64,000 nt of DNA from Spirochaetia bacterium (GTDB lineage: Bacteria; Spirochaetota; Spirochaetia; SZUA-6; Bin103). Both the position numbers and the translations under genes were made by a program. The stretch lies in the NCBI GenBank assembly GCA_965208575.1, contig CBDBOV010000005.1:384001-448000 (forward strand), given 5' to 3'. Each line of letters opens with the position of its first letter. Position 1 is the stretch's first letter. The notes under the pieces are model-generated. The model was not told where the DNA came from, ran no database searches, and worked only from the letters and a program-made list of their open reading frames with translations. Shown piece after piece: positions 27,243 to 61,223 of this stretch.

Positions 27243-27463
27243 CACTGCAACCTCGCCGCCTGCCGGCGCTGCCCTTTGGCACATCCCGTCCGTTGCCGCG
27301 CAGCGCCGACCTCGTCGCTCACCCCTCGATGACCCGGAAGGCGATGTCGACTGCGGTAAACCGCGCCTCGCCGAGGCTGCCGGGCGGCGCGGCGCGGGCA
27401 GCAATCAGCGCTCCTTCCGCCGGCGCACACCGGAATCGGGAGAAGCGCGGCGGTGCGCCCGTG

Positions 27464-28519
27464 TCACCGCGCGAGGATGGCGCGCACCGTCGGCCTGTGG
27501 GTAACGCTCACCGGCACCTTGTGATCCCCGGTGAGGCGCAGCAGCGTGCGCCTGCCGCTGCGTACCGATCTGGTCACGTGGCGGGTAGCCACCCAGTAAC
27601 TGCGGTGCACCTGGATGCCGCGGTCACCGAGCTCGTCCACCGCGTCCGAGAACCGCATCTTGATGAGGCCCGAGCCGACGGTGGTGTGCACTTCGAGATA
27701 GTGATCCTCGCTCTTGATGTAGACGAGGTCCGTTCCCAGCCGATCAGGCAGTAGTTGCAGCACGGTGCCGACCCGCCCGGCGGGCCGTTGAGGAGCGCGT
27801 TCACGTGGGTCGGCAGGTCGCTGTTCCGCCGCCGGCATCTCGTCTCCTGGTTGCACCTGCGAATCCGCAGTTTCGGCCTGAGCGTCGGCCGAGGCGCCGT
27901 CGGGTGCAACGTCCGGCGACGGGCAGTTGGGTTCCGAGCGATGTTGTTCGGTCTTGTGTGCGACCGTGTCGGTCGCTCCGAGCGGCTCGCCCGCCGCATC
28001 GGCGGGCGCCCGGCCACCACCGGCATCCGTGGCCGACCGGCCATGCCTGATGCGTTGCCACATCATGTAGAAATAGAGAACGCTGCAGACCACGGTCGTG
28101 GTCGCGACCAGCAGATATACCTCGAGCGGGCCGAGCTCGGGTGGCAGGGTGCGGATGACCAAGCGGTCGATCATCAGCGTCCACGCCGTATTCGGGAGTG
28201 CCACGATCAACGCCGCCGTCACCACGCCCGCCAGTGCCTCGGCCGGATTTCGATAACGCAGCACATAGAGCGTCACGACGGTGAGTGAGTAGTGCACGGG
28301 CCATCCCTCGACGGCACAGAGCGCGCCGTATGCCCAGCGATCCAGGAGATCCGCTACCGAGTAGGAGCCGAGGGGGCCGATCAGTGAATACACGGACGCT
28401 ACCGTAAGGCAGGTGGCGATGGTGACCTTCACCATGCGCGCGCTCAGCATTTCGACATAGCCACGCTCCATCGTCGCCGGCCGAGTTCTCCCGGCGCGCG
28501 TGCCGGATGTGTCGGTCAC
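27464..28519 (-). CDS. Membrane-anchored LytTR regulator, paralog 1 (about 4 TM helices, linker, LytTR domain)
   Basis: Hydrophobic N-terminal half; C-terminal IKSEDHYLEVHT...RFSDA..EL...GIQVHRSYWV...VPVS. Confidence 0.9.
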   Translation of the reverse strand: MTDTSGTRAGRTRPATMERGYVEMLSARMVKVTIATCLTVASVYSLIGPLGSYSVADLLDRWAYGALCAVEGWPVHYSLTVVTLYVLRYRNPAEALAGVVTAALIVALPNTAWTLMIDRLVIRTLPPELGPLEVYLLVATTTVVCSVLYFYMMWQRIRHGRSATDAGGGRAPADAAGEPLGATDTVAHKTEQHRSEPNCPSPDVAPDGASADAQAETADSQVQPGDEMPAAEQRPADPRERAPQRPAGRVGTVLQLLPDRLGTDLVYIKSEDHYLEVHTTVGSGLIKMRFSDAVDELGDRGIQVHRSYWVATRHVTRSVRSGRRTLLRLTGDHKVPVSVTHRPTVRAILAR

Positions 28520-28617
28520 GTGGCTACCGACCGGGTACGCCGGTATCGTGCTGGGCAGGGATGCAACTCCCGTGACAACCGCCCCGAGCGGGGAACGGTT
28601 TGGCGATCCGCTCCGAT

Positions 28618-29807
28618 CTATCCATCGCTTCGGTCGAGAGCCCCCTCGTCCCTTGGAAGAATCCCACCGACCGCTTGCACGAGCCTCGTGAGTTCTGCGC
28701 GGCAGGACACCCCGAGCTTTGCGTAAGCCTGTTTGATATGCCAGCGCACGGTATGTTCCCCTCGCCCGATCGTCCCTCGGACTTCCCGGATCGATTTTCC
28801 CTCGGCGACCAGGGCCGCGACTTCGCTCTCGGCCGCCGACAGCCCGAGACTCGTTCTCAGCACGTGTCGATCAATTCGTCCCTGGTTGTTCGGTTCGATG
28901 GCCAGCACCAGCGCAGCCGGGCGCAGGGATCGGAAGCCGGTGTCCCGGTCCTCAACCGGCGTGACGTGCAGTGCGATCGATGATGGGTAGTTGTTTGGGC
29001 GCCTCACCAACAGAGACCCGCTCTCGCCTTGTCCTCCGAAGCGTGGCAGAGCTCGAACCAGCAGCCGTTGGAGGTCAGTGTTGTCGCTCGGCTCCGAGAG
29101 ATGGAGCAGCCCGGTGCGATCGGACAGAAGAGCCCCTTGGCGGAACAACTCCTGCGCGCGGTCGTTCGCTGCCACGACGCGTCTCCGTCGGTCGAGCTGA
29201 ATTACCCCTGCCCGGGTGTTGTCGAGGAGCCCCTCAAGCGTGGTCTGCAGAGCACGGGCTGCAACCAGTGCGTGACGCATCCGGACGAACTGACGAACGT
29301 GCGGCAGCAGTCGCTTGACCATGTCGATCTGACCGGTGGACCACCCGTTGCCGTCACTCGGATCTGCGATCCCCCAGACGATTCGTGACCCGCCAGGTCC
29401 ATCGAGGCGGACATTCAACCCGTCCTGGAAATGGTAGCGCGGCATTATCTCGTTGTAGGTCACCGACTGCTCCAACCGCGATTCGGAAAGCACAATTCGG
29501 TGACGTGGACAACCTTGCCGTCCGGCAGGCGCCTCAGTCGCGGCACGTGTTCATCCGCCGGGTAGTCGTTGGCAAGGTACTCCTGTTCCCATTCGCTGCG
29601 ATGCTCGCCTCGGTAGCAGAACCGCATGAAGAGTGGCTCGATGGCGTCGTTCCGCTCTGTCGTGTCTGTCGTGCGAAGTACCAGGTGATTGCCCTTGGCT
29701 ACGCAAGCCTCGTCGATGAGGGCAGACACGGCGACCCAGTGGGACTCGTCGAGCATTGCCTCATGCACACCGGCGAGGATGCGCTCGAACCTTTCTCGAG
29801 GGTTCAT
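28618..29807 (-). pseudogene. Sensor-domain plus LuxR-HTH transcriptional regulator, frameshifted near 29490
   Basis: The N-terminal ORF (MNPRERFERILAGVHEAMLD) and the C-terminal ORF (GLSAAESEVAALVAEG...TVRWHIKQAYAKLGVS) join across a frame change. Confidence 0.8.
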
Positions 29808-29957
29808 TTCGCTTCTTCCACCATGTCCTATTCTGGATCGAACGGTCGTTCCTGTCACTACCAGAATTGGTAGAAACAGCTATGTTTTGGAGCGGGGGGA
29901 TGCCGCGCCTCGGTGGTCTTCGAGTATGCGCCGGACGAGCGTGCGGTACGGCGGTAG

Positions 29958-31013
29958 TCAGCGGCGCAGGGCGGCACGCACTGCAGGCAGGTGGGTCACG
30001 CTCACCGGAACCCGGTGGTCTCCGGTGAGGCGCAGCAGCGTGCGCTTGCCGCTCCTGACCGATCTTGTGACGTGGCGCAATGCAACCCAGTAACTGCGGT
30101 GCACCTGAATGCCGCGGTCGCTGAGCTCGGCGACCGCGTCCGAGAATCGCATCTTGATCAAGCTCGACCCGGCGGTTGTGTGGACCTCGAGGTAGTGATC
30201 CTCACTCTTGATGTAGATGAGGTCGGTACCCAGTCTCTCGGGCAGCAGTCTCAGGAGAGCACTCGACCGGTCGGCCGGGCGTGGCGTGATGGATCGCTGC
30301 GGGACCACGACGGCCTGCTCCGCCGCCGGCCCTCCACCGTTACGTTCCCGCGGATTCGTCGAGTCGTCCTGGACGCCAACTGCAGGCGATGTGTCAGGCG
30401 ATGTGTCGCGGGAATCTGGCGGCTCGGGCCCAGTCGAACCCCCACCCTCGGAAGGCGGCGTCCCGTTTGCTTCGCTGGTGGTCGCAGGAATGGTGCGGAC
30501 CGTGCCCGTGGGCTCTGCGGGCGTTGTGTTTCTGACTCGCTGCCGCAGCAGGTACCAGGACAGCATGGTCCAGGCCCACGCCTGGACAGTGACCAGGAAA
30601 TACAATTGCAGGATGTCGAGTCTCTTGGAATAGGAGGGGTGAGCCAGAGACTCGACCGCGATTACCACCGCGCTCGCCGGAAGGGCCGAACACATCGTCG
30701 CGATCGTCAAGGCAATCCCTATCTGCAACGGCGTCCGGAAGCGAAAGAAGTACAGCGTTACCACTATCTGAGAATAGAAAATGGGCCAACACACACAGGC
30801 ATACAGCAACCCGAACGCCAAGCGTTCCGGCAGCGCCAGAGCGTCGAAAGAACCAGCCGGGCCCACGAGCGACAAGATGAAGACGAAGGCGCCACTCAAG
30901 GCGACGTTGACGCGGACCGTGTGCCCACTGAGCATTTCCCGATAGCATTGCAGCATCGATCCTCGTACATGCTTGCTGTTCGGCGGGCGCGTTGCTGGAG
31001 TCGTTCTCATCAT
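29958..31013 (-). CDS. Membrane-anchored LytTR regulator, paralog 2
   Basis: Same architecture as paralog 1; near-identical LytTR domain. Confidence 0.9.
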   Translation of the reverse strand: MMRTTPATRPPNSKHVRGSMLQCYREMLSGHTVRVNVALSGAFVFILSLVGPAGSFDALALPERLAFGLLYACVCWPIFYSQIVVTLYFFRFRTPLQIGIALTIATMCSALPASAVVIAVESLAHPSYSKRLDILQLYFLVTVQAWAWTMLSWYLLRQRVRNTTPAEPTGTVRTIPATTSEANGTPPSEGGGSTGPEPPDSRDTSPDTSPAVGVQDDSTNPRERNGGGPAAEQAVVVPQRSITPRPADRSSALLRLLPERLGTDLIYIKSEDHYLEVHTTAGSSLIKMRFSDAVAELSDRGIQVHRSYWVALRHVTRSVRSGKRTLLRLTGDHRVPVSVTHLPAVRAALRR

Positions 31014-31188
31014 TATTCCTGAGCACTTATCTTATCGGCACGTTCACGATCGTGCAGTGGATATGGACTCCGAGTGTCCCCTATCCGGCTCACACCGTCA
31101 AGCAGCTCCGATTCATGATCGCAAGGTGTCGTCATTCTACCAAGCGACCCTTAAACACGTGTGATCCTCCATGTATTGTTGTCTGATC

Positions 31189-31307
31189 GTTCGCGTTTCA
31201 GCGTAACCGCGCATTCATGTTCGCGATTCAGCGGTTCCGCGAACAAATTCGCGGGACGCGAATCATTCCAATTCCGGGTTCGCGAACATTCGTCGGGTTT
31301 CGCGAAC
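31189..31307. promoter_or_regulatory. Cluster of TTCGCGAA-type palindromes (putative operator array)
   Basis: Perfect copies at 31279 and 31299; partial copies at 31190, 31220, 31236, 31248 and 31255; lies in a divergent intergenic region. Confidence 0.6.
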
Positions 31308-31678
31308 TAAAGCCCTCCTTCACGCACAAGATCGTTTGTCACTGACCGGAATTTTGTTAGCCTCGTGCCACGCAAGCAGGAAATGCGGTTGTTCATCTGA
31401 CCCCTTCCGCTTGCAGGAGGGCAGGCGCGAAGGACCTGCAGCGATCGCAAGCATAGCTTGGGCGCTGCACGCAGCTTGTCCGTTCAGGGCATTCGTTGTT
31501 GCCAGATCAGCGCAGCGCTGAGACGACTGGCAAGAACGAATATGTCCATAGAAATCCGTGTCGGGGCAGGAGGTTTTGTGTACGACGTATACCGACATTC
31601 CCAATTTGTACTGACAGGGCGCGCAGTGCGGCTGTGCGCCATCGCGACGGGCTTAATCTCACAATGCGGAGGGATAAC

Positions 31679-33736
31679 ATGAAGGAATGGGGCGTAATCA
31701 AACGAATTGCGCTGCTGATGGTGGTCGCGGCCCTGGGGTTCGCGATGGTGGCTTGCCAGGGCGCCGTAGGGCCATCTGGCGATGAGGGTGGCCAGGGACA
31801 AACCGGTAAGACCGGAGGGGTAGCACCCGCTGTCACCGCGGACGGCGTGAGAGCGCATGGCGGGTACACCTTTGAGGTAAGTGAAGACACGTACAACTGG
31901 TACCGAGTCAACAGGTGGTTCTCCGACCCTGACGCCACAGCCGAGACTGCTGCGCTGGAGTTCAGCGTGGACTCGTCGAACCGGAAAGTCGCGACGGCAG
32001 AACTGGTGACGGTACAGGTTACCGAGGACGACGAAACAACTACTTACATTCATCTGCACGTGACCACCGTGGCAACTGGCAGAGCCGATGTCACGGTTAC
32101 TGCGACGGACCCCGATGACCTGTCGGTCAGTGTCGTTCTGAGGCTCACCATCGAGGAAGCGGACCCGACGGACCCGACGGACCCGACGGATCCGACGGAC
32201 CCGACGGACCCGGAAGAGGGAACTACTGCTGTCGGAACCATCGATGACGTAGCGGTAGACGTTGGTGCAACCACCGACGTGGACGTTGCTGACAACTTCA
32301 GCGGCGACGGCCTCACCTATAGCGCCGAGTCGTCCGACACCGAGGTGGCGACCGTAGCCGTCGCCGGCAGCATGGTGACCGTAACCGGTGTGGCCGACGG
32401 TACCGCAACGATTACGGTGACCGCGACCGATGCCGACGACGAGACGGCCGAGCAATCGTTCGACGTCACGGTCGGCGAGGGCGATCCCGAAGAGGTCACG
32501 GATGTCAGCAGCGACTGCGGCACGCTCGACGTTGGCGACACCTGCAAGGTGATGGCTCCGGACGGCAACACCGTAAAGAGCGGAAACAGCAACCTGTTGA
32601 CCGTTACAAAGAAGGACGGCTACTGGGAAGTCCTGGCCATTGCGAAGGGAAAGACCACGGTCGAAGTGCGCAACTCGGACACCAACGCCTTGGTGGAGAC
32701 AATAGATGTGCAAGTCAATAACCAGGCTCCCAAGCGCAAGGGCGCGAATCCCGGATTGCACCAGTTGGCGATGGCTTCCACCGCGGTAGCCTCTCTGGAG
32801 ACGCCAGATTATCCGGATGACGGCGCCGATCCTCTGTTCAAGGATGACGATGGCGACCCGATATTCGTGAACAGCCCCAAGGAACCTCTCTTCAAGATCG
32901 TGGTGAGCAAGGCCGCTAACGCAGCTGCACTCAACCTCGACGACTATTTTACGGATCCTGACGGCGACGACATCAGGTTCACCGCGAAGTCAAGTCATCC
33001 CGAGCGAGCTATCGTCGTTGGTTACAACGAGGTCGCGGACGGGACTACCGAGGTGTTGGTTGACGTGCTCCACAACACGGGGGACGAGGTCACCTTCACC
33101 TTCAGTGCCACGGACAATGATGACGAGCGTGCGCAGTCGGCCGATGACAACTCGCTGCTCTTGCGCGTGGAGTTGAAGCCGGTGCTCAGTTGGAGATACG
33201 ACGTTGAACAGTATGATGCGCCGCAGAACTTCAACTTCCACAACCCCAAGGACGTGGACTATCGCAGGAATAACCCTGACAACCACAACGATCCGGCGGA
33301 TCCGGGACGTGACGGCTGGCACCAGTTGGTGTTCACCGGAGACGCAAACGCCGAAGCCGGGTTCAAGTTTGCACAACACATAGCAGGTGCGGACGGGGCG
33401 GACCACAACAAGATCTGCGGCGTCGGTCTGGACACCCCAATTCCAGCCAACAGGCTTGAAGAGGGAACCGCGGAAATGTCGTGCTACGTGGTTACATCGT
33501 CCGACACGTCGATCGTCAAGATCGGAGCTCCGACCAAGACACCTCCGGGTCTGGAGCAGGACGATGGTACGGGCACCGATCCAGGCACTCATACCATCAA
33601 CTTTCAGGTTCTCAAGCCCGGTAACGTCACCATCACGGTCACCTACAAGGCTTGGGGGGCTGAGGCCGACGGTACCCCGCTGACCGAGGACAGCAAGGAT
33701 CTTTCGGTTCGGGTGAACGAAGTACCGGAGCCGTAG
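31679..33736 (+). CDS. Large acidic surface lipoprotein with Ig-like/cadherin-like repeats
   Basis: Signal peptide with lipobox MVA-C; short Gly-X-Y stretch; repeated SS...VATV / VTVTATD / F.DPD motifs; GGAGG RBS. Confidence 0.82.
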   Translation: MKEWGVIKRIALLMVVAALGFAMVACQGAVGPSGDEGGQGQTGKTGGVAPAVTADGVRAHGGYTFEVSEDTYNWYRVNRWFSDPDATAETAALEFSVDSSNRKVATAELVTVQVTEDDETTTYIHLHVTTVATGRADVTVTATDPDDLSVSVVLRLTIEEADPTDPTDPTDPTDPTDPEEGTTAVGTIDDVAVDVGATTDVDVADNFSGDGLTYSAESSDTEVATVAVAGSMVTVTGVADGTATITVTATDADDETAEQSFDVTVGEGDPEEVTDVSSDCGTLDVGDTCKVMAPDGNTVKSGNSNLLTVTKKDGYWEVLAIAKGKTTVEVRNSDTNALVETIDVQVNNQAPKRKGANPGLHQLAMASTAVASLETPDYPDDGADPLFKDDDGDPIFVNSPKEPLFKIVVSKAANAAALNLDDYFTDPDGDDIRFTAKSSHPERAIVVGYNEVADGTTEVLVDVLHNTGDEVTFTFSATDNDDERAQSADDNSLLLRVELKPVLSWRYDVEQYDAPQNFNFHNPKDVDYRRNNPDNHNDPADPGRDGWHQLVFTGDANAEAGFKFAQHIAGADGADHNKICGVGLDTPIPANRLEEGTAEMSCYVVTSSDTSIVKIGAPTKTPPGLEQDDGTGTDPGTHTINFQVLKPGNVTITVTYKAWGAEADGTPLTEDSKDLSVRVNEVPEP
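32162..32212 (+). repeat. 9-bp tandem repeat GACCCGACG x5.7 (DPT linker)
   Basis: Directly visible in the sequence. Confidence 0.92.
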
Positions 33737-33758
33737 GAGATAGAAGAGATTGAAAACC

Positions 33759-33826
33759 GGGGCCACCAGAGCTTGTGCGGTATGGTCTAGACCTCCTGCC
33801 CGCTCGCGTCTGGTGGCCCTTTTCTT
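33759..33826 (+). terminator. Putative rho-independent terminator after the lipoprotein
   Basis: GGGCCACCAGA...TCTGGTGGCCC stem followed by TTTTCTT. Confidence 0.65.
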
Positions 33827-34031
33827 CCTCGTGGCTGCCGGAGCGCTGTTGGTATCGTGCTCAATCCCGCTATCGGCATGAGGCACGGAGCCGCACAACT
33901 CAGGTAACAAGAACACGACCGTTAACGGGACTGACTCGGGGAGGGTCAATATGGTAAGCGACCGTCACACCCTCGGGCCAGTCCCCTTTCATTCCCCGCA
34001 CCGTGCCCGACCGCGGTGGTAGGAAACGGGA

Positions 34032-34157
34032 ATGTTGAATACCACCGCCGACACTGGCTACCTGGTCGCAGGGGCCATCGCGCTGCTGGGGATAGCCGCG
34101 GCCCTGCTTGAGGTCTACTGCTTCCGTATCAGGAAGCGGCGACGGCAGCGCCGCTAG
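34032..34157 (+). CDS. Small single-TM protein (41 aa) with a polybasic C-terminus
   Basis: MLNTTADTGYLVAGAIALLGIAAALLEVYCFRIRKRRRQRR; AGGA upstream; below the ORF-track size cutoff. Confidence 0.5.
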   Translation: MLNTTADTGYLVAGAIALLGIAAALLEVYCFRIRKRRRQRR

Positions 34158-34592
34158 CCGGCAAGAGCCGGCGTTACGTGATGAAAATGTCGGGGCACCG
34201 TTGCTGTGGTGAGGGTACGTGAACGTAAGACCTTCTGCCCCTCCCCACGCCGCGGTGCCCCTTGTCTGTGCACCACGCCATGTCCAGCGCCTGGGGTCAG
34301 AACAGGAGGCACGTGGCGGTGGAGGGACGTGAACTCAAGACCCCTTCTGCCCCCTTCCTGCCGCCACCGTGCCTCGCCTCGTGGCAATCCTTCCGCGCCA
34401 TGCCGCCGTCGGACGGCGGCTTTCAACCTCACTCGTCCGTGGCGGACGGCGTGCCGAGACGCTGTCCACCAACCTAATCCCTATTCAGTGTGAACGTCCA
34501 GGGGGTCGACTTGACCGGCTTGACCGGGAAGGAAGGGGGCTTGCGTTTCCGGAACCATGGCGGCGGTGGCTGCATGGCTAGTGGTATCGGGC

Positions 34593-34883
34593 ATGGCGGC
34601 CACTGACAACGCGACCTGGCGGGCGCTGCGGTCCATCGCCGCGGTACCCGATGACGCGTGGTCGCCCCGGGAGGGAGACTGTGCCGAGACGTCTCACCAT
34701 CGCTGGGCGCTCGTGATGTACGTGCACACGAATCCCGGCGGCCGTGTTCAGTTCTGGCGATGTGTCCGTTGCGGGAAACACAAGTTGCAGGCGGTGAACT
34801 CCGGCGAGACCGTCTACGCCGACAGTGACCGGCAGGAGGGCTTGAACCAAGCGAGTGCCGACGTGACCAAGGCCAACCGCTAA
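34593..34883 (+). CDS. Hypothetical protein with C..HH and CxxC motifs, possibly truncated by IS1634
   Basis: DCAETSHHRW...WRCVRCG; its stop codon lies inside the IS end. Confidence 0.4.
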   Translation: MAATDNATWRALRSIAAVPDDAWSPREGDCAETSHHRWALVMYVHTNPGGRVQFWRCVRCGKHKLQAVNSGETVYADSDRQEGLNQASADVTKANR

Positions 34884-36868
34884 GCCGAAGTTCCAGAGCG
34901 GGGATTTTGTTAATTCGTTATTGATCTGAGAATTGCGCTCAACAGCCGATGTCCGTTACTGGCTACACTTGGGCGCTGACCTCCAGGAGATCGAAACAGC
35001 GCTGCTGCAGCGCGGTCGGTTCGCTGTGCATGGTGAACGTGGCGCCGCTGTCCACCATCCGCACGCGGTTGGCCGTCAGCGTCCCCAACTCGCTCATCAG
35101 GCCGCGAAAGCTGTGCACCGGCAGACCGTCGTCGGTGCGCTTGCTCGCCGCCTTCCGGTGTGCCGCCGGTGACCGTTGCGCCGGTTGCACCACCGACTCG
35201 CGCAACTGCTCGCCAGCTGCGGGATCGTGGTCGTCGAACAGCACCGGCGCCAGCTTCCTGCGCATGTGCCACTCCACGTAGTAGGCCAGCATGCACAGGA
35301 ACACGTGCGCCCGCACCCGGTCTGCGCTGCGGTGATAGATCGGTCGCACCTTCAGATCCACCGTCTTCATGCTGCGGAACGCACGTTCCACCTTGGCCAG
35401 GTCCTTGTACGCCGTCACCGTCTGCTCGGCGTCGAACAGCTCCGGCTCCACGTTGGAGCGCACGATGTAGAGCCCGTCCAGTTCTTCCTCGGCCGCGATC
35501 TTGTCCAGATCACGCGCGAACGAGAACGAGTCGTCGGTGATGGTGGTGGTGAAATGCTTGCCCACCTTGTAGTGGTTGATCACCTTGCCCACCCGCAGGC
35601 CGATCGCGCCGGCGCCGCGCAGCGGCTCCTTGGCGCGCTGCGTGGCCGTCACGATCGGCGTCAGTTCCTCCTCCGTGGAGGCCAGCAACGCCTGCCTCTT
35701 GCGCTGCCGTTGCTCGGCCAGGATCGGGTTGCGGCACACGATCAGCCGCTCGCCCGGGAACTCGGGTGAGCTGATCTCCGCCAGGTCACGCTCGTCGAAC
35801 ATGGTCTGCGCCACTTCACCGGCCTTGATCAGCTTGCGGATGGTGGGCGCCCGCAGGGTCGTGATCCAGCGCAGACCGTCGATCCCCTGCAGGTCCTCGC
35901 GGATGCGCGCGCCGGTGAGCATGCCGCGGTCGCCGACCAGCACGACGCGCTGCAAGCCGAAACGGTTGCGAATCTTGTCGACCTGAGCGGCGACCGTCTT
36001 GGGATCGCCGGTGGAGCCTTCGAAGACCTCGACGGCGATGGGGCAGCCGGCGGCGGTACACAGCAGGCCGAACACGATCTGCAAGGTGCCGCGCTTGCCG
36101 TCGCGGCTGTGACCGCGGCGCGCCAACGGGCAGGTGTGTCCCTCGAAGTAACTGGAAGTCAGGTCGTACAACATGAGCGTGTTGTCCTGCAGATGGCGCT
36201 TGGCCAAGCGCTTTTCGATGCCGTGCTGGCGAGCGAGTAGCCAGTCCATGGCGTTGTACAGCTCATTCTCGTCGACGGCTCCCAACTGCAGCAGGTGGCC
36301 GAGGGAGGAGACGGCGCTTTCGGGGTTGAGGCCGCGAGCGGTGGCGAGCTTGGAGCGTGCGTCGACGACGCGAGCGACGATCATGGCGACGACCAGGTCG
36401 CGCTCCCGGGAGGCGGGACGAGCGACGAGGGAATGGAGGGAGAGCTTGCGGAGGGAACCGAGGACGGCGGCGACGTGGCCGTGGGGATAGCTGCGCAAGA
36501 TGGAGAGCAGTTCGTTGGGAGAGCGGAGAGCGATACCGCCGTTGAGGAGGACGCGCAAACCATCGACGAGGTGATCGGGCCACTTGGAGAGGTTGGCGAT
36601 GGTGCGTTTTCGGACCTTGCCGTGCTGGCGGAAGGATTCGCGGAGGAGGACGGCTGGGGGAGAGTTGCGGTTGGGGACGGTGTCGATGTACATGGGCACC
36701 CTTCGGGAAGGAAGAGTAAATCATTTAATGATTGACTGTCAATTAGATGAGAGAAAAAGACCGCTGAAAACAAGGACGATTTACATGGACACGATTTACA
36801 CCCACAAACACGCTAATTCTTGTGATATAAAGTACTTACAAGAACGGGCCCCCAAACTTGGGGCTAAG
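34880..36868 (-). mobile_element. IS1634-family insertion sequence
   Basis: Imperfect terminal inverted repeats CTAAGCCGAAGTT (34880) and AACTTGGGGCTAA (36855-36867) flank the transposase; no target duplication seen. Confidence 0.75.
34963..36693 (-). CDS. IS1634-family DDE transposase
   Basis: MYIDTVPNRNSPPAVLLRES, YDLTSSYFEG, VGDRGM, VERAFRSMKT..L.VRPIYH. Confidence 0.93.
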   Translation of the reverse strand: MYIDTVPNRNSPPAVLLRESFRQHGKVRKRTIANLSKWPDHLVDGLRVLLNGGIALRSPNELLSILRSYPHGHVAAVLGSLRKLSLHSLVARPASRERDLVVAMIVARVVDARSKLATARGLNPESAVSSLGHLLQLGAVDENELYNAMDWLLARQHGIEKRLAKRHLQDNTLMLYDLTSSYFEGHTCPLARRGHSRDGKRGTLQIVFGLLCTAAGCPIAVEVFEGSTGDPKTVAAQVDKIRNRFGLQRVVLVGDRGMLTGARIREDLQGIDGLRWITTLRAPTIRKLIKAGEVAQTMFDERDLAEISSPEFPGERLIVCRNPILAEQRQRKRQALLASTEEELTPIVTATQRAKEPLRGAGAIGLRVGKVINHYKVGKHFTTTITDDSFSFARDLDKIAAEEELDGLYIVRSNVEPELFDAEQTVTAYKDLAKVERAFRSMKTVDLKVRPIYHRSADRVRAHVFLCMLAYYVEWHMRRKLAPVLFDDHDPAAGEQLRESVVQPAQRSPAAHRKAASKRTDDGLPVHSFRGLMSELGTLTANRVRMVDSGATFTMHSEPTALQQRCFDLLEVSAQV

Positions 36869-36973
36869 GCGTCGCGCCCGCGAGCCAGAGTGGGTGGGCG
36901 GTGGCGGCTCGGGGGTTTGTCCTTTGTCTGCTATGCTGCGGTCGTGGTAGAAGCAGGCTATGGCGGGCAACGC

Positions 36974-37621
36974 ATGAGCCCGGAGGCACTGGTGGTGGAG
37001 ACGTTTGCGATCGGGAGCCTGGGGTGCAACTGCTCGCTGGTGTATGAGCGCGACAGCCGGCGGGCGATCGTGATCGATCCCGGCGACGACCCGGAGGCGC
37101 TGCTGCAGGCGGTGGGCGAGCGCGGACTGAAGGTGACGCAACTCCTGCACACGCATGCGCACTTCGATCACATCGGCGGATCGGATGCGGTGAAGCGGCG
37201 GCTGGAAGTGCCGATCCTGCTGCACCGGGACGACGAGGAGCTGTACCGGCGGCTGCAGGAGCAGGGGCTGCTGTTCGGGATTCCCGTTCAGCCGCCGGGC
37301 GAGGTGGATCAATTCATCGAGGAGGGCTTCGAAGTGGCGCTCGGCGGGCGCAAGCTGCTCACCACCATTCACACGCCTGGCCACTCGCCCGGCTCATGCT
37401 GCTTCTACACCGAGGCGCTCGGCGAGCCGCTGCTGTTCGCGGGAGATACCCTGTTCCGCCAGTCGGTGGGCCGCACCGACCTGCCCGGCGGCGACCCCTA
37501 CGCCCTGATCCGGTCGATCAAGCAGCGCTTGTTCGAGTTGCCCGAAGAATCCTACGTGGTGCCGGGACACGGCGAGCACACCACCTTGCACGCCGAGCAA
37601 CGGCTCAACCCGTTCCTGTAG
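36974..37621 (+). CDS. MBL-fold metallo-hydrolase (glyoxalase II/YcbL-like)
   Basis: THAHFDHIG, HTPGHSPG, GDTLF...GRTDLPGG, PGHG. Confidence 0.92.
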   Translation: MSPEALVVETFAIGSLGCNCSLVYERDSRRAIVIDPGDDPEALLQAVGERGLKVTQLLHTHAHFDHIGGSDAVKRRLEVPILLHRDDEELYRRLQEQGLLFGIPVQPPGEVDQFIEEGFEVALGGRKLLTTIHTPGHSPGSCCFYTEALGEPLLFAGDTLFRQSVGRTDLPGGDPYALIRSIKQRLFELPEESYVVPGHGEHTTLHAEQRLNPFL

Positions 37622-37658
37622 CGCGCGCTCTCGCAAGGGTCGCCGGAGGCGTCGGCGG

Positions 37659-38615
37659 TCAGCGCTGCGCGCCGAACTCGCGGTCGAGCTGTTCCCTGGC
37701 GTGCAGCCGGTCGAGGGCGTGTTGTACTTGGTCGAGTTCGTCCGGTTCGAGTTCCGTGCCGGCGGCGTCGAGGCGGCCGAGCTCCGTCTCCAGCTCAGGG
37801 TCCGCACGTGGAATCAACTCCGCCGCCGCCATGCTGTTCAGAGTGGTGTGCGCCTGCTCGGCGATGGTTCGTTCGATGATCCGGTCGCAGGCGGCCAGCC
37901 AGCGTTGCAGTTTCCGCATCGTGTCACGGCCCAGATCCGGCGCATCCAGGCCGCCCGCGCGCCACGTGGCGAGGAGGCGGTTGCCGCGCTCGCGGTGACG
38001 GTGCAGCTCATCGAGCCGCTCGCGCATCTGGCCGTAGCCGGAGCCCTCCGGCGGTGCCGCCACCAGGGGTTGCATCCCGTTGCGCCAGCGGATCAGCTCA
38101 AGCTTGGCCAGCTCGGCGGTATAGCGCCGGATGGCGCGTTCCACCGTGCCTTCCGCCTTGCGCAGGATGGTCAGGAGTTGTCCGGTGGCCGGCGAGCCAT
38201 TCTCGCCGCGCAGGCGGGCGGCCAGCTCGCGCACGTGGCGCCTGGACTGCAGTATCTCGGCCAGCCGTCCCGCCAGGCGCAACTCGCTGCTCTGCAGGGA
38301 AGGTGAGCGGCGCCGCCCCTGCAGGATGGCGGACACCTCGGAGAACAGACCCAATCCCCAGGCCAGGCCGGTGGCGCAGCCGGCAACGCACCCGTACAGC
38401 AGCAGGCTGCTTTCTGGGTGCCGGTAGAACACGCTTCCGCCGAGCACGCCGCCGAGCATGGTCGTGAACACCAGCCACGCGGACCGCTGCCCCCGCCCGG
38501 ACTGAAAGGGCCGGTACACGCCGCAGTCGGTGCAGAACCGATCCGCGCGCGTCACCCAGAAGCCGCAACCGCGGCATTGGCGCCAGAAGCTGTGCCGTTG
38601 GCCGTAGAGCATCAT
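37659..38615 (-). CDS. Hypothetical protein: N-terminal zinc ribbon, two TM helices, coiled coil
   Basis: CRGC...CTDCG, then two hydrophobic segments, then an R/E/L-rich helical region. Confidence 0.7.
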   Translation of the reverse strand: MMLYGQRHSFWRQCRGCGFWVTRADRFCTDCGVYRPFQSGRGQRSAWLVFTTMLGGVLGGSVFYRHPESSLLLYGCVAGCATGLAWGLGLFSEVSAILQGRRRSPSLQSSELRLAGRLAEILQSRRHVRELAARLRGENGSPATGQLLTILRKAEGTVERAIRRYTAELAKLELIRWRNGMQPLVAAPPEGSGYGQMRERLDELHRHRERGNRLLATWRAGGLDAPDLGRDTMRKLQRWLAACDRIIERTIAEQAHTTLNSMAAAELIPRADPELETELGRLDAAGTELEPDELDQVQHALDRLHAREQLDREFGAQR

Positions 38616-38800
38616 CCGATCCCGAAGAAGTAGAGGTGATGCAGTATAGGGCAGCGAACCCGCCGCGCCAACCTGCTCCGCTACCGTCGGCTACCACTTG
38701 CCACCGTACCGCTACCGTCCCATGCGCCGTCGTCGATCAATTGAATGCAATTGCCCGCACCCGCCTGATACGGCAATGATACGGTAAAATGAGGTTGCCG

Positions 38801-39295
38801 ATGCGTCGTATAGCCGTCGTTCTCTTTGCCGCCGTCTCCGGTGTGACCTTCGCCGAAGGACCCGGCGTTGCACTCGGTTACCAGTTTGTTCCCCTCTTGC
38901 CGGCCGGACTTTCGCTGTCGCTGCTCGACACGTTCGGGCTCCTCGGTGTCGAGGCCACAATCAACGCGGGTGGCAGCCGTGATGACGGGGCGCGGGCGGC
39001 CCGGTTCTCGGGCTCGCTCGGCGCCAACCTGGCCACCCCGATCAATCTCTACCCAAGCCTCGCCGTCAGCTTTCAGAACAATCGCCGGTGGCGCGAGGGT
39101 GACCTGATCGAGCGACGGACGGTGTGGGGACTGGACGTCAAGCTTACCGGCTACGTCTACTCCTGGATCGGAATCACCGTCGGCTACCGCGCGCCGTTCG
39201 GCCAACCCCTCGACGGATCCCTGATCCTCGGCGCCTCCCTGGTTCTGCTGCGCCAGGACGTCCGTCAGACCGCGGCCTGCAACCCACCATGCTGA
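38801..39295 (+). CDS. Exported hypothetical protein, possibly a small outer-membrane beta-barrel
   Basis: Signal peptide MRRIAVVLFAAVSGVTFA; alternating amphipathic strands (IGITVGYR, LILGASLVL). Confidence 0.6.
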   Translation: MRRIAVVLFAAVSGVTFAEGPGVALGYQFVPLLPAGLSLSLLDTFGLLGVEATINAGGSRDDGARAARFSGSLGANLATPINLYPSLAVSFQNNRRWREGDLIERRTVWGLDVKLTGYVYSWIGITVGYRAPFGQPLDGSLILGASLVLLRQDVRQTAACNPPC

Positions 39296-39392
39296 ATCCT
39301 CAACATCGCCGACGTTGTTGACAACGACCGCTACGCGGGCATCGCCCAGCCACGTTCCAGGGCTTATTCTGGAGCCCGGCTGCGCTTCCCGG

Positions 39393-39494
39393 TACGCGAA
39401 GTGCGGGGATATTGCAATCGCCATTTCGTGAATTCGCGAAATTGACATCGAGCCTCGTGTCGGCGATTGGGGTCGATGCAGTTGATTTCGCGAA
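39393..39494. promoter_or_regulatory. TTCGYGAA motif cluster next to a TTGACA hexamer upstream of LytTR paralog 3
   Basis: TTCGTGAA 39425, TTCGCGAA 39433 and 39487, TACGCGAA 39393; TTGACA 39442-39447. Confidence 0.58.
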
Positions 39495-40339
39495 GCGGGT
39501 GCGTCACGATGGTGCGCGAGTGGTGGGACTCAAGCTGCACGACGTGAATTTGCCGGCACGCGGCGCGATGCGATCGGTGTACCAGGAGATGCTGAGCCGT
39601 CCAGCTATCCTGATCGCCATCGTCATGTTGGCCGTGGCCGCGTGCGCGGTGCTCGGGCCGATGGGGACCTATGATGCGCTTACCGCGGGGCAGCGCTTGG
39701 CGTTCGGTGCGTTGTACGCGGTTCTCGGCTGGCCTCTCGGTTACGCGGCAGTCGTGGTGGCGGCATACTTCTTGCGCCGCCAATCTGCGCTGACGATGGC
39801 CGTGACGCTGACGGCGGTGGCGCTGTTCGTGTCCTTGCCATGTACTGCGGTCGTGCACACGGTAGAAACGCTGGCGCATCCGCACTATTCCGCGTCCGCC
39901 GGCCTGACGCGGTTGTACGTTCAGGTGGCGACGGTAGCGGTGGTGTACGACCTTCTGTTTCTGTACTTGGTGTACGTGCGCACCAGGCACGGCCACGCGC
40001 TGGCGGCGGCTCGAGTTTCCAACACCAACAACGCCGTCACGGCCGCTCCTCCCGCCGGCGAGCCGGTCGACCAGGATGGGGCTGGCTCCGCGACATCTCC
40101 GGCGTTCACTTCCGCCGCCACCGGAGGTGCGAGCGCGTCCTCGGACGCCGGTGGCGCCGCGATCGGTAGGCGCCGCGAGCCGGACGCGGCACCCGCTCAT
40201 CGGCACCCGGAGCCGGGGCGCAGCTCGCGGGAACTGGACGGTACGCGGGACGACCGGGGCGAAGGCGTCTCGGAGTCGCCGCTTGCAGAGCTTGGCAGCG
40301 ACGTGATCTTCCTCAAGAGCTATCCCACCGGCCCCTGGG

Positions 40340-40560
40340 CCGGCGCAGTCATGAAAGAAACAAGGGTGAGCTATAGTGTGGGCAGAGTTCTGGGTGGAGC
40401 GCGAAAGTAGGCCGGCGCGTCACTGGCGTTACGTTCTGCGAACCCGTTCAAGAGCTTGGCCCCGGGGCGGGTGGCGTAGTCATTGGTGAGGTTGTCAGCC
40501 GGCGCGGCCGGGTGGCGATCATCCCGTTCAGGAGAATACCTGCTACACACGCCTTGGCCG
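40340..40560 (-). ncRNA. Putative IS110 bridge RNA (ends and strand inferred)
   Basis: Segments match donor and target sequences on both sides of the core; duplicated AGTCAT and CCCGTTCARGAG motifs. Confidence 0.55.
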
Positions 40561-40586
40561 CACCACTCAGTCGTAGCGGAGGTTTC

Positions 40587-41975
40587 ATGGCACGACGCAG
40601 ACACAGACGCAAGGGCAAGGGCAGTCGCACAGCGCAACCAAAGGTGATGCACCCGGACGCTGCCGGCTTGGACATAGGCGCTACCGAGGTGTACGCGGCT
40701 GTGCGCCCGGAGCGCGACCCGGACCCGATCCGGAACTTTGCTACGTTCACCGCGGACCTGCACGCCTTGGCCGACTGGCTCAAGGAATGCGAGGTCACCA
40801 CGGTGGCGATGGAGTCCACCGGTGTGTACTGGATTCCGGTGTATCAGATCCTGGAGGCACACGGCTTCGACGTGGTGCTGGTGAATGCGCGTCACGTGCA
40901 CTCGGTACCCGGTCGGAAGTCCGACGTGGCCGACTGCGAGTGGTTGCGCTACCTGCACTCGGTGGGATTGCTGCGCGGCTCATTCCGCCCTGCCGACGAG
41001 GTGTGTGCACTGCGCTCGGTGCTGCGCCATCGCGACACCTTGATCAAGATGGCGTCGCGCAGCGTGTTGCACATGCAGAAGGCGTACAGCCAGATGAACG
41101 TGCATCTGCACCATGCCATCTCTGACCTGACGGGGACGACCGGTCTGGCCATTACGGACGCTATCCTGGCGGGTGAGCGGGATCCGGCGCGGTTGGCCGC
41201 TCTGGCCGACCGGCGGATCAAAGCCAGCCGCGAGACCTTGATCAAGGCGCTGCAGGGCGACTGGCGCGCCGAGCACCTGTTGGCGTTGCGGCACGCGCGA
41301 GCGACCTATGCCCACTACCAACAACTCATCACGGAGTGCGATCAGGAAATCGAAGCCGGCATCCGCGCGTTCGAAGCCAGCAGCGAGCCACCCGGCGCGG
41401 TGGGCGACGACCCACCGGATGAGGGAATCGATGCGGAGCCCGAGGCGCCAACCGAGTCACCGGCCAAGCGGTTCGACCTGCGCGGCCACCTTACGCACCT
41501 GTTCGGCACTGACCTGACGCTGATTCCCGGCATCGGCGAAAGTACGGCGCTGGTTCTGTTCACCGAACTCGGCCCGGAACTGTCCCGCTTTCCGACCGCA
41601 CCGCAATTCGCCTCCTGGCTGCACCTGTGCCCCCACAACCAGATCACCGGCGGCAAGATCATCAGCTCGCACACCGGTCGGGGCACCAATCGGGCCGCCC
41701 AGGCGCTGCACTGGGCGACCCAGTCGTTGTACCGCAGCCCATCGGCCCTGGGCCAGCACTTCCGCCGCATGCGGGCGCGTCTGGGTACTCCCGAAGCGAC
41801 CACTGCAGTCGCGCATAAACTGGCTCGGATCATCTACCATCTGATCACGCATCGCGTGGCCTACGATGACAGCATCCTCGCCGCCGAGGAGCGCCAGGAC
41901 CGGCGCCGCTTTGAACGCCGGCTCCGAAGGCAGGCACACGCACTCGGTTATGAGCTTGTCCCGGAGGCCGCCTGA
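40587..41975 (+). CDS. IS110-family DEDD recombinase/transposase
   Basis: GLDIG, MESTGVYW, RKSDVADC, IPGIG, ITGGK, AHKLARIIY; GGAGG RBS. Confidence 0.93.
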   Translation: MARRRHRRKGKGSRTAQPKVMHPDAAGLDIGATEVYAAVRPERDPDPIRNFATFTADLHALADWLKECEVTTVAMESTGVYWIPVYQILEAHGFDVVLVNARHVHSVPGRKSDVADCEWLRYLHSVGLLRGSFRPADEVCALRSVLRHRDTLIKMASRSVLHMQKAYSQMNVHLHHAISDLTGTTGLAITDAILAGERDPARLAALADRRIKASRETLIKALQGDWRAEHLLALRHARATYAHYQQLITECDQEIEAGIRAFEASSEPPGAVGDDPPDEGIDAEPEAPTESPAKRFDLRGHLTHLFGTDLTLIPGIGESTALVLFTELGPELSRFPTAPQFASWLHLCPHNQITGGKIISSHTGRGTNRAAQALHWATQSLYRSPSALGQHFRRMRARLGTPEATTAVAHKLARIIYHLITHRVAYDDSILAAEERQDRRRFERRLRRQAHALGYELVPEAA

Positions 41976-42245
41976 TTGTTGTTTCTCAGGAGTGAGGACC
42001 ACTATGTCCAGGTGCGGACTTCGGCGGGCTCGGCGCTGATCAAGATGCGGTTTGCGGAGGCCATCGCGGAGCTCGGCAGTGCGGGAATCCAGGTGCACCG
42101 TTCCTACTGGGTTGCTTTCCACCACATGAGGGGATTGACGAAGCGCGACCGGAAGCTGATGTTGCGGCTGAGCGGCGACCACCTCGTGCCGATAAGTGCC
42201 CGCCACCGTGTCGCGGTTCAATCGGCATTGCAATCGCCGAAGCAG

Positions 42246-42300
42246 GGCGTGAATTCGTCAGATTAGCGTCCGGAAGCAGCGAATTTCGCGAATTCGCTGC
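42246..42300. promoter_or_regulatory. TTCGYGAA motif cluster upstream of the pentapeptide-repeat gene
   Basis: GCGTGAATTCGTCA near 42247 and GCGAATTTCGCGAATTCGC (perfect copy at 42285). Confidence 0.5.
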
Positions 42301-42374
42301 TGGTCGATGCAGACCGAAGCGCCTCACGCTTGCGGTCTCACCAATGGAGGCCATGCGTTGCCGATAATACTGGC

Positions 42375-42938
42375 ATGATGTGCGACAATGTTCGTTGCGG
42401 AGTTGTTCGTTGCGGAGTTCGTTGCGGATTGCTGATCCCGGTTCTGATTGTGTTCGGCGCGGCGCTTGGCGAGACGCAGACCCTTGACTGCGTTCCGGAT
42501 TGCCGCGGTGCAGACCTGGCAAACGCAAGCCTGGCGAATCTGAATCTGAACCGTGTTGACCTGGTCAATGCCGACCTGACCGACGCCGATCTGACGGGGG
42601 TGTCTCTGGTGGGAGCCGACCTGACCGGTGCTTCGCTGTTCTGCGCGACTCTGGTCGACGTCGACCTCACCGCCGCAACCCTGACCCGTGCCGACCTGCG
42701 GAAGGTGGACCTCTCCGGCAAGGGCGGCCCGCCTGCTACCTTGATTCGTGCCGATCTCACGGGCGCTGACCTCAGTAATGCGAATCTCAACGGCGCCGAC
42801 CTCCGAGGAGCGGACTTGAGCTACGTGAACTTGACCGACGCGTACCTCGGCAGCGCTATCCTGAACGGCGCGACCATGATAGACACGATCGGGTGCGACG
42901 ACAGTCGGCGGCTTCCCGGCTGCTACCCGGGCTCATAA
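42375..42938 (+). CDS. Exported pentapeptide-repeat protein
   Basis: Hydrophobic signal segment, CVPDC, many A(D/N)Lxx repeats, C-terminal Cys pair. Confidence 0.85.
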   Translation: MMCDNVRCGVVRCGVRCGLLIPVLIVFGAALGETQTLDCVPDCRGADLANASLANLNLNRVDLVNADLTDADLTGVSLVGADLTGASLFCATLVDVDLTAATLTRADLRKVDLSGKGGPPATLIRADLTGADLSNANLNGADLRGADLSYVNLTDAYLGSAILNGATMIDTIGCDDSRRLPGCYPGS

Positions 42939-43119
42939 GTGCGTTTCGGGTGCCGGTCAACGGACCGGGGCGCAATGCAAAAGCCGCCGGGGTGACGATA
43001 ACCGGCTTGTGCAACAACCCGGGGCCCCGGCGGCAAGTTTTTCTCGTGCAGCCAATCGTGGGCGAAACGCTGAATTCGGTGAGTGCTCCGGCGATCGCCG
43101 CGGCAAAGATAGCAACCCA

Positions 43120-43176
43120 GGCGTGACAAATTGGGGAAAGTTCGTGAATGCTGCGGTTATTTCGTGAATTCGTCGA
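43120..43176. promoter_or_regulatory. TTCGTGAA motif pair at a 20-bp period
   Basis: TTCGTGAA at 43141 and 43161; degenerate copies at 43120 and 43169. Confidence 0.5.
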
Positions 43177-43299
43177 TTTGTCCCGCTGCGGCAGAGTACG
43201 GACGCCAAGTATCGCTCGCACCTTGACGAAATCACGCACGGAATGACCTTCACTCGGGCAGGCGTCCGGCGCTTCGCCCGCGGCGGCGGCGCCGCGGTT

Positions 43300-43560
43300 G
43301 ACCTGGTCGGGATTCGCGCACGGGGAGAGCGTGAGGGCCGTCCGCACCAGGTCTGCCCGGCGCACGATCCCGAGCTTGGCGTGGATCGGCTTCAGCAGTT
43401 CTCGGACGGTGCTCGGTGCGAGGCGGCCGCGACGTCCCGTATGGTGAGGCCATCGGCAGGTGCGGTTGCGAACCGGCCCTCCGCGGGCGTCAGGCCGAGC
43501 GCCGCCGCTACGTGGTCCGGGTCGACTGCCGCTTGTGCCGCCGGATCCCCGATCGGTGCC
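43300..43560 (-). pseudogene. Remnant of a LuxR-type HTH regulator
   Basis: VDPDHVAAALGLTPAEGRFA..ADGLTIRDVAAA / PSTVRELLKPIHAKLGIVRRADLVR across a frameshift. Confidence 0.7.
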
Positions 43561-43845
43561 GGCGCCGCGCCGTGCCCGATACGGAAACCGCGGCTCCTGC
43601 GTCCGCGGGGGTAACGTGCCGCGCGAGCCGCGGCGACCCCGCCAGCCGCGCAACCGTCATTGAACCGCTCGCATCCGGGAGCCCGGAACGTGGCACGGCC
43701 CGAGAGGCGCGGCGATCGTCGGCGCGCGCCGGGCGGGCGCCGGGCCGCTATGCCTTCCGTTCAACCTTTTGTATACTATTGGCAGTTAACGGTTTTTCGC
43801 ACGGCCCCACCTCGCGGGCCCTCGACCTCATCTATCTGTACTTCT

Positions 43846-59872: not shown

Positions 59873-60014
59873 CGCGGCCAATATAACACGTGAGTCTGTG
59901 CGGTCACTCCGTGACAGCGAAGACGACGAAGACCGATACCCAAGCAGCGCCGCCGGCCGGCCCATTCGGCCCAGGCACCGGCGCCTGCCGGCGGCATCTG
60001 CTACAATCGTGCCG

Positions 60015-60485: not shown

Positions 60486-60552
60486 CGGCCGCGACGGCCG
60501 CGACATCCGCGACGGCCGGCACAATCGTCCCGAAACCGGTAGACTGCCGCCG

Positions 60553-61152: not shown

Positions 61153-61223
61153 GCGGCATGAGCGTGTTGGTGTCCGCCGCGGTGAATCGGCGCTACCCTA
61201 TATATGCGGAGGGGGACAAGCAG

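Follow-up and report, generated by a model that had tools for sequence, protein, structure and literature searches.

Which DNA do LytTR domains recognise when they are tethered to the membrane, and which genes do they control? The question is raised by a 64,000-nucleotide stretch of contig CBDBOV010000005.1 (positions 384,001 to 448,000; hereafter, the window) in assembly GCA_965208575.1 of a Spirochaetia bacterium, an uncultured high-GC spirochaete whose locus is known from sequence. In a first-pass annotation, an island at 27464-43560 had been proposed to hold a regulon made up of membrane-LytTR proteins, a palindromic TTCGYGAA motif and exported-protein genes. We propose that, most likely, evenly spaced TTCGCGAA-type repeats switch on a surface lipoprotein gene and the regulators' own genes. 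The genome (G000; 6,497,588 bases) was compared with three relatives of the same genus, G006, G001 and G007, and gene calls were set by Pfam and by the codon-position pattern of substitutions against contig 77 of G006, which is syntenic, 81-90% identical and without both of the insertion sequences found here. The argument turns on the following features.

27467-28471, minus strand: membrane-LytTR paralog 1, 335 amino acids; Pfam LytTR match, 48% identity to paralog 2, third-codon-position substitution bias against G006
28618-29858, minus strand: LuxR-type regulator gene 1 (PAS and GerE helix-turn-helix, HTH), frameshifted, in two overlapping open reading frames (ORFs); the G006 ortholog is intact
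29961-30956, minus strand: membrane-LytTR paralog 2, 332 amino acids; Pfam LytTR match, AlphaFold2 model with four helices, disordered linker and LytTR domain
31189-31327, no strand: half-site cluster with the highest density in the genome (9 in 120 base pairs, bp), between the divergent paralog 2 and lipoprotein genes
31279-31327, plus strand: predicted LytTR operator of three direct repeats, TTCGCGAAC/TTCGCGAAC/TTCACGCAC, in exact 20-bp phase
31336-31363, plus strand: predicted promoter with extended -10, 8 nucleotides (nt) past the third repeat, called from conservation
31679-33736, plus strand: lipoprotein gene with immunoglobulin-like repeats (Big_2), the predicted main target; N-terminus MKEWGVIKRIALLMVVAALGFAMVAC, Pfam Big_2 28.7 bits against 22.8, codon periodicity
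39395-39494, plus strand: half-site cluster ranking second in density (7 in 120 bp), located 75-175 bp before paralog 3 starts
39568-40319, plus strand: membrane-LytTR paralog 3, 5' part (four hydrophobic segments and linker), codon periodicity
41982-42266, plus strand: membrane-LytTR paralog 3, 3' part (LytTR domain), PF04397 match, codon periodicity

What kind of proteins are the three paralogs? They score 51.3, 54.5 and 46.7 bits (paralogs 1, 2 and 3) against PF04397, for which the gathering cut-off is 22.6, and the genome contains seven LytTR matches in all, every one above the cut-off and fused, in a single ORF, to a like N-terminal region. An AlphaFold2 model of paralog 2 (alignment of 15 sequences; mean predicted local distance difference test, pLDDT, 71) places helices at residues 11-31, 42-70, 76-105 and 115-144, joined by loops of at most 10 residues with no periplasmic domain; these are predicted to be four transmembrane helices, and hydropathy gives three to four hydrophobic segments in the membrane-LytTR proteins. 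Residues 146-231 form a linker rich in P, T, S, G and A (pLDDT below 50), and residues 233-331 form a beta-rich domain (pLDDT 83-91) that Foldseek matched with probability 1.00 to the LytTR structures 3d6w (Bacillus cereus), ComE 4cbv, 4xqn and AgrA 3bs1, with target template-modelling scores of 0.66-0.70 for single-domain LytTR chains and 0.28-0.30 for full-length ComE 4cbv. Response regulators of the AgrA, ComE and AlgR type contain a receiver domain and need a histidine kinase. Pfam finds only LytTR, and no receiver domain, in the proteins described here, and no kinase gene was present among the 20 ORFs scanned with Pfam between 23.7 and 46.7 kb. The earlier description of three kinase-free paralogs built of helices, linker and LytTR domain has thus stood up, with the qualification that the third is split by an IS110 element.

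The helix bundle itself (residues 1-145) matches no Pfam family even at E = 1 and no NCBIfam model, and a search of solved structures with the whole protein sequence returned nothing relevant, with one unrelated chain at E = 0.2. A profile of the bundle matched 262 cluster representatives among 1.84 billion; LytTR was recognised in 100 of the best 150 matches by Pfam and in 106 by our own hidden Markov model, the eight longest LytTR-less matches look frameshifted, and the remainder are short. A word-indexed search with residues 1-145, which is of limited sensitivity, gave no shorter form and six proteins of near length. Because most of the top profile matches carry LytTR, fusion of the bundle to LytTR appears to be the rule, with no evidence of a stand-alone form. 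From the architecture alone we infer that the proteins sense at the membrane, and it would be the helix bundle that receives the signal. Among 42 loci, the bundle was detectable outside the spirochaete family in three proteobacterial metagenome-assembled genomes, and the closest records among these loci are labelled 'MAG: Spirochaetia bacterium'; in 17 genomes of seven neighbouring families, the membrane-LytTR family was not found with this query. It is expanded in both genera of its bacterial family, with seven copies here, up to 13-14 per genome and about 150 genes over 16 genomes.

Is the palindrome more than a common word? TTCGYGAA gives 17 strand-matches in the window (shuffle mean 2.8, largest 9, in 100 shuffles), which correspond to 11 distinct places: 10492, 31279, 31299, 32864, 39425, 39433, 39487, 42285, 43141, 43161 and 50901. 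Nine of them fall within 27464-43560, where 0.63 were expected and at most four were seen in 300 first-order Markov simulations, so that the concentration reported earlier is real; eight of these nine sites are non-coding, and the ninth, at 32864, lies in the lipoprotein ORF. The statement that only one stray copy lay outside the island needs correcting, since it overlooked the copy at 10492, and the in-island copy at 32864 had also been missed. The genome holds 276 TTCGYGAA sites, and TTCGCGAA occurs 108 times, with 79 of 96 palindromes of the same composition being rarer; the octamer is therefore not over-represented overall. This would be compatible with chance clustering in A+T-richer DNA; G+C is 0.60-0.66 at 28-44 kb against 0.67-0.72 elsewhere in the window. 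However, the excess over the simulations and the recurrence of the same association in a second genus leave chance with almost no credibility.

The genomic distribution of clusters is equally uneven. When a cluster is defined as at least two octamers within 150 bp, three of the five in the genome are found in this island and the other two in coding DNA; clusters spread randomly over intergenic DNA, which would have told against the earlier proposal, are not what is seen. Half-sites (TTCGCG, TTCGTG, TTCACG and their complements) were counted in 120-bp windows, and the two densest windows of the genome start at 31220 (nine sites) and 39425 (seven sites), each directly upstream of a membrane-LytTR gene, at distances of 264 and 145 bp. 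The octamer clusters at C1:395561 and C6:426746 and the half-site cluster at C6:1133509 were considered as regulon members and rejected, as all lie within long ORFs of high G+C at third codon positions. At C6:1133509-1133601, a coding tandem repeat, KRFEDMNANLDRRFAA, beside another membrane-LytTR gene mimics a half-site cluster.

Which of these sites look like operators? From 31279, the sequence reads TTCGCGAAC, 11 nt, TTCGCGAAC, 11 nt, TTCACGCAC, 8 nt, TTGTCA, 16 nt and TGtTAGCCT. LytTR domains such as AgrA bind tandem sites about two helical turns apart, and the 20-bp phase found here, as in published LytTR operators, agrees with the spacing anticipated by the first-pass annotation. Octamer pairs spaced by 20 bp occur in the genome as four strand-pairs (three distinct), all in this window. 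The phase of the three repeats is kept in G000, G006, G001 and G007, the flanking DNA of which is barely alignable, and TTTTGTTAG is invariant in all four. Changes within the repeats fall mostly at the degenerate fourth and seventh positions; positions 2 and 3 are changed as well in the first repeat of G001, TCTACGAAC, and position 1 in that of G007, ATCGCGAAC. In 4/4 genomes, the promoter has the LytTR gene or genes behind it and faces the lipoprotein gene, which is the divergent neighbour in every case and the products of which have related N-termini and diverged mature parts; synteny in relatives, for which the earlier proposal had called, is thus retained for the triple repeat together with its gene.

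TTGTCA - 16 nt - TGtTAGCCT is accordingly treated as a candidate promoter. Its -35 and -10 hexamers agree with the consensus at 8/12 positions, under the scanner threshold, so that what speaks for the promoter is its conservation together with the TGn extension. The lipoprotein mRNA would have a leader of about 300 nt (about 250-340 nt in the three genomes measured). Roughly the first 60 nt of this leader (31364-31678) have conserved counterparts in G001 and G007. As judged from the arrangement of repeats and promoter, we consider activation of the lipoprotein gene somewhat more likely than repression, at odds a little better than even, and this is the only gene with a convincing predicted operator. 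Its product appears to be a length-variable surface protein; at 32100-32250 the gene encodes a PTD-repeat linker, in which 51 alignment columns are different from G006.

The clusters might instead be leftovers of a repeated or mobile element, or recombination sites. The island has a lower G+C content (about 0.60-0.65 against 0.67-0.72) and contains two insertion sequences, and one relative (G003) has a repeated element of about 280 bp that is full of motifs. In the window, however, no more than 14 identical bases are common to the four clusters, which rules out that they were copied from a longer repeat; the IS110 element has inserted into a coding sequence and not at a motif, and four genomes preserve both the phase and the spacing to the conserved TTTTGTTAG. 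We therefore regard a mobile origin of the clusters as very unlikely.

Do the same repeats occur at the regulators' own genes and at the other exported-protein genes? Four further features bear on this question.

38789-39295, plus strand: small gene with a signal-like N-terminus (hydropathy)
42274-42298, no strand: palindrome GCAGCGAATTTCGCGAATTCGCTGC that includes a single TTCGCGAA, located after paralog 3 and before the pentapeptide gene
42375-42938, plus strand: pentapeptide-repeat gene with a hydrophobic N-terminal segment (Pfam Pentapeptide 101.8 bits; hydropathy)
43121-43168, minus strand: repeat pair TTCACGAAA/TTCACGAAC, 20 bp apart, with a weaker GTCACGCC one turn-pair further; fully conserved in G006

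On the minus strand, two CGCTGAAWCGCGAAC units 30 bp apart point towards paralog 2 about 46 nt upstream of TGgTAGAAT, and in G001 TTCGCGAA stands ahead of each of three tandem LytTR genes, in one case as a pair 30 bp apart. Before paralog 3, the sites at 39425 and 39487 are identical in G006 and the site at 39433 is lost there. The arrays at the regulators' own genes are thus spaced by 30 bp or irregular. About 100 bp before the start of paralog 3 (39470-39570) show only three differences from G006, far below the coding average, and include a 23-codon upstream ORF in another frame. Hydrophobic N-termini were recognised in three genes (31679-33736, 38789-39295 and 42375-42938) by hydropathy and sequence. 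The suggestion that the motif controls the exported-protein genes of the island is therefore retained for the lipoprotein gene, which has a predicted operator before it, and is without clear support for the others: the pentapeptide gene has a single upstream site, within the 25-bp palindrome, and the small gene at 38789-39295 has none. The pentapeptide gene possibly forms one operon with paralog 3.

If the membrane-LytTR proteins are the binders, motif and gene should travel together. We searched 41 genomes (24 of the family and 17 of neighbouring families) for two octamers 20 bp apart with one mismatch allowed. The family genomes gave 37 strand-hits against 7 for the reversed control, and in the 17 genomes outside the family pattern and control were about equal. 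Leaving aside G000 and G006, the relatives contain 19 pair loci, six of which lie at most 900 bp upstream of a membrane-LytTR gene (in G001, G007, G018, G019 and, twice, G023), and a seventh, in G021, follows a LytTR fragment at a distance of 79 bp; from gene counts and genome sizes, simple arithmetic predicts about 0.08 near such a gene. In the sister genus, four of seven pairs are found just upstream of membrane-LytTR genes and a fifth just downstream. The co-occurrence of motif and gene thus extends across genera, and membrane-LytTR is the only protein family consistently beside the motif.

This comparison also bears on the LuxR-type PAS-GerE regulator of the island as the protein that binds the TTCGCGAA palindromes. 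Its gene lies between two LytTR genes, its 3' part is under purifying selection, as judged by the substitution pattern against G006, and a palindromic octamer is what many HTH proteins recognise. However, a LuxR homolog was not found in the 10 other motif-bearing loci fetched, and the motifs have remained conserved here even though the gene is frameshifted. For an HTH dimer, moreover, a palindrome of 8 bp is short, and the third repeat, TTCACGCAC, is conserved without being palindromic. Because of the missing homologs and the frameshift above all, we assign the LuxR protein only a slight chance of being the binder.

Several observations weigh against the membrane-LytTR proteins as the binders, or against the sites as operators. 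The six pair loci of G003 are all far from any LytTR gene. At 12 best-hit membrane-LytTR loci (one per genome), only the four closest have an octamer in the 900 bp upstream, and of the other four membrane-LytTR genes of this genome, three are without a cluster and one has three half-sites. In the window itself, the cluster at 39425 is irregular and without 20-bp phasing, no obvious target gene accompanies the pair at 43141/43161, though that pair is perfectly conserved in G006, and the absence of an upstream motif at 38789-39295 has been mentioned. Consensus scans for sigma-70 promoters and terminators call no promoter in three stretches covering the four intergenic spots. Finally, the sites do change less between G000 and G006 than the surrounding non-coding DNA (4/72 positions against 156/1067; one-sided Fisher p = 0.017), which speaks for them, but this test is weak, as the relatives are not independent and G006 is only 11-19% diverged. 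Given the remote G003 loci, the 4/12 loci with an octamer and the single case of half-sites among the four other copies, the motif appears to belong to a subset of LytTR paralogs, and the association with membrane-LytTR genes that was originally put forward is upheld in two genera only with this restriction.

The same G003 loci would suit a different arrangement, in which the repeats are real operators bound by an unlinked transcription factor and the LytTR genes are merely among its targets. Two of the three G003 loci that were fetched precede lipoprotein genes, and 8/12 best-hit LytTR loci are without an octamer. Two of the three also share the 280-bp repeat, at about 71% identity. One G003 motif-array locus (L059) is syntenic with the window at 58959-61938 and has about 2.9 kb, with arrays and a lipoprotein-like gene, in place of some 150 bp in the window. 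Yet the length of the repeats, their phasing and their distance to the -35 are those of LytTR operators, a LytTR regulator acting in trans would equally explain remote sites, and no other regulator family recurs at the loci examined. We therefore consider an unlinked factor improbable, and hold that the TTCGYGAA-type repeats are probably operators of these membrane-LytTR proteins.

How might such a system work? We propose that the regulators, as kinase-free one-component proteins with four helices, a disordered linker and a LytTR domain, would sit in the membrane, and that their tethered LytTR domains would bind 8-9-bp TTCRCGAAC-like repeats. Three repeats at a 20-bp phase, which is two helical turns, would place the bound domains on the same face of the DNA, and since the repeats end 8 nt before a -35-like hexamer with an extended -10, the regulator would activate the divergent surface lipoprotein gene. 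The arrays before paralog 2, with the LuxR gene and paralog 1 as passengers, and before paralog 3, with the pentapeptide gene, would provide autoregulation; paralog 1 is probably co-transcribed with the LuxR gene upstream of it. More speculatively, the expanded 4-helix-LytTR proteins could be the main kinase-free envelope-sensing network of this spirochaete family, organised as portable cassettes in which one or more regulators face a fast-evolving lipoprotein gene over a shared TTCRCGAAC code, with cross-talk among paralogs remodelling the cell surface and two hairpins carrying an operator word in their loop as a further layer; we put this broader picture forward only tentatively.

What is the state of the island in this genome? 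The remaining features are as follows.

34032-34157, plus strand: small ORF, 41 amino acids, with one hydrophobic helix and a basic tail; G001 counterpart in alignment
34192-34261 and 34308-34373, plus strand: two hairpins with unlike stems and the same loop (folding z-scores, conservation)
about 34885-36862, minus strand: insertion sequence with PF01609 (DDE_Tnp_1) transposase ORF at 34963-36699 (Pfam); absent at the syntenic G006 locus
between this insertion sequence and 37659: metallo-beta-lactamase-fold gene
37659-38615, minus strand: zinc-ribbon membrane protein gene
40320-41981, plus strand: IS110-family element with transposase ORF at 40512-41975 (Pfam DEDD_Tnp_IS110 and Transposase_20)
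about 43250-43653, minus strand: LuxR remnant 2, with only the C-terminal HTH readable in translation and no Pfam match at E 0.01
after LuxR remnant 2: DEAD-box helicase gene

The island is decaying here, with paralog 3 split, a frameshift in one LuxR gene and only a remnant left of another, in agreement with the two broken LuxR-type genes noted earlier. By junction comparison, the IS110 element interrupts the codons for FLKSEDHY of the LytTR domain of paralog 3, and the G006 gene is uninterrupted. LuxR gene 1 has a 2-bp insertion near 29478 relative to the intact 401-amino-acid ORF of G006, and Logan contigs of runs X1 and X3, both from one sample that is possibly the source, match 29401-30051 without difference. 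LuxR remnant 2 differs from G006 by indels of 13, 7 and 1 bases and has no codon periodicity. Contigs of runs X1, X3, X5 and X6 span the site of the PF01609 element without the element, and one contig of run X6 is short by about the length of the IS110 element; both insertions are therefore strain-specific. Over both insertion sequences (34472-36647 and 39912-42087), contig depth in runs X1 and X3 is 10-50 times that of the flanks, and many copies are therefore present in these samples. In run X5, of which the organism field reads 'sponge metagenome' and the contigs of which are about 5-7% different from the window, a 7.2-kb contig matches 37441-39296 and 39411-39973 with about 4.8 kb of other DNA between them; this points to a related strain with a different insert exactly at the motif-bearing spacer 39296-39411. 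An antisense ORF at 38681-39448 was rejected as a gene because the periodicity of substitutions fits the plus frame, and a GC-rich inverted repeat with a T-run lies 3' of the pentapeptide gene at 42983-43042. Neither the LytTR proteins nor the lipoprotein nor the small ORFs match any NCBIfam family, and Rfam gave no match in 27000-45000 at E up to 1.

Between the lipoprotein gene and the PF01609 insertion sequence lies about 1.1 kb of DNA that is conserved and shows no codon periodicity. Within it, 33750-34500, where the small ORF and the hairpins are located, is only about 4-13% diverged per 150 bp from G006, less than the coding DNA on either side. The hairpins (folding z-scores -4.9 and -4.6) differ in their stems and share a loop of 20-odd nt, ACGTGAAC..AAGACC..TTCTG, which carries TTCACGT, the word of the third operator repeat, on the opposite strand. 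Both are conserved in G006 and G001, and the exact pattern occurs only at this locus, in 3/41 genomes searched, with no match in Rfam; the two hairpins may be a new RNA or DNA element. The 41-amino-acid ORF ends in FRIRKRRRQRR, and a 37-amino-acid counterpart in G001 has the same EVY.FRIRKRRR ending. Because 0/6 substitutions against G006 fall at third codon positions, its coding status is not settled. The ORF was also considered as a partner of the regulator, for which only its neighbourhood suggests binding.

How, then, does this system compare with known ones? The first-pass annotation had called membrane-fused LytTR proteins poorly characterised, a view that is outdated now that CoxC (2024) and HigX (2026) have been studied; the study of such regulators has nevertheless only begun, and what a tethered domain recognises and how it finds its DNA are largely open. 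The present locus offers a concrete predicted operator and target for a second, sequence-distinct group of membrane-LytTR proteins, from another phylum, in a family able to expand to a dozen copies per genome. Among the first literature matches, judged by titles and the openings of abstracts, no connection of the word TTCGCGAA with LytTR was found, nor did the first matches for LytTR and spirochaetes list such a regulator in a spirochaete.

HigX (CCNA_03131) of Caulobacter crescentus consists of four helices, a low-complexity region and LytTR, acts from the membrane and needs its helices; its motif from chromatin immunoprecipitation sequencing is an 8+8 inverted repeat, ATGTTASC GSTACCAT, and its authors propose a 'fused LRS' class, after the LytTR regulatory systems (LRS) (PMC13384398). 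All LytTR proteins of Caulobacter have membrane segments, according to a survey of transmembrane regulators (PMC10269533). HigX and the proteins described here share four N-terminal helices without a periplasmic domain, a low-complexity linker, a C-terminal LytTR domain and the lack of a receiver domain, the bundles being compared by architecture only. HigX is encoded by one conserved gene, which in some strains lies next to higBA; in the present case there are seven paralogs per genome, three of them on one island. A difference that tells against the operators proposed here is that HigX, the only characterised protein with four transmembrane helices and LytTR, binds an inverted repeat, and the repeats here are direct and phased at 20 bp.

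In operator layout, the locus is closer to other systems. CoxC, an MHYT-LytTR protein of Afipia carboxidovorans that has been studied with an Escherichia coli reporter, binds three direct repeats TTNNNGCN at 18-21 bp, whose overlap with the -35 brings about repression; the operator of RcoM1 from Paraburkholderia xenovorans consists of three TTCNNGCA repeats, separated by spacers of 12-13 bp (PMC11347149). Here, too, three 8-bp direct repeats lie two helical turns apart, with a similar consensus (TTCNNGCA/TTNNNGCN): TTCGCGAA, TTCGCGAA and TTCACGCA, with 12 nt between octamers, fit TTCNNGCA at 7, 7 and 8 of 8 positions. Like the proteins described here, CoxC is anchored in the membrane and has a disordered linker. 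However, it carries a seven-helix MHYT gas-sensing domain, and RcoM a haem-PAS domain, in place of a 4-helix bundle without a Pfam family, and the CoxC repeats overlap the -35, whereas those described here lie upstream of it, in the position of an activator. In streptococcal LRS promoters, repeats of 9 bp are separated by 11-12 bp and end 4-11 bp before the -35, and the -10 is often extended (PMC6193735); the predicted lipoprotein promoter follows this scheme (9-11-9-11-9, then 8 nt, TTGTCA, 16 nt and TGtTAGCCT). The Streptococcus mutans systems HdrRM and BrsRM also resemble the present one in kinase-free LytTR control, a small membrane module of three to four helices and autoregulation, which is proposed here; they encode the regulator and the inhibiting membrane protein in separate genes, and all seven copies here combine both parts in one polypeptide.

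With AgrA, ComE and AlgR, the proteins share the LytTR fold and tandem direct-repeat sites, both predicted here from sequence and a model; those regulators differ in having a receiver domain and a histidine kinase. Taken together, the architecture is like that of HigX and the layout of the predicted operator like that of RcoM, CoxC and the LRS, and neither feature is new in kind. The resemblance of the operator to those of CoxC and RcoM rather than to that of HigX may be a hint that repeat-type operators are the more general rule.

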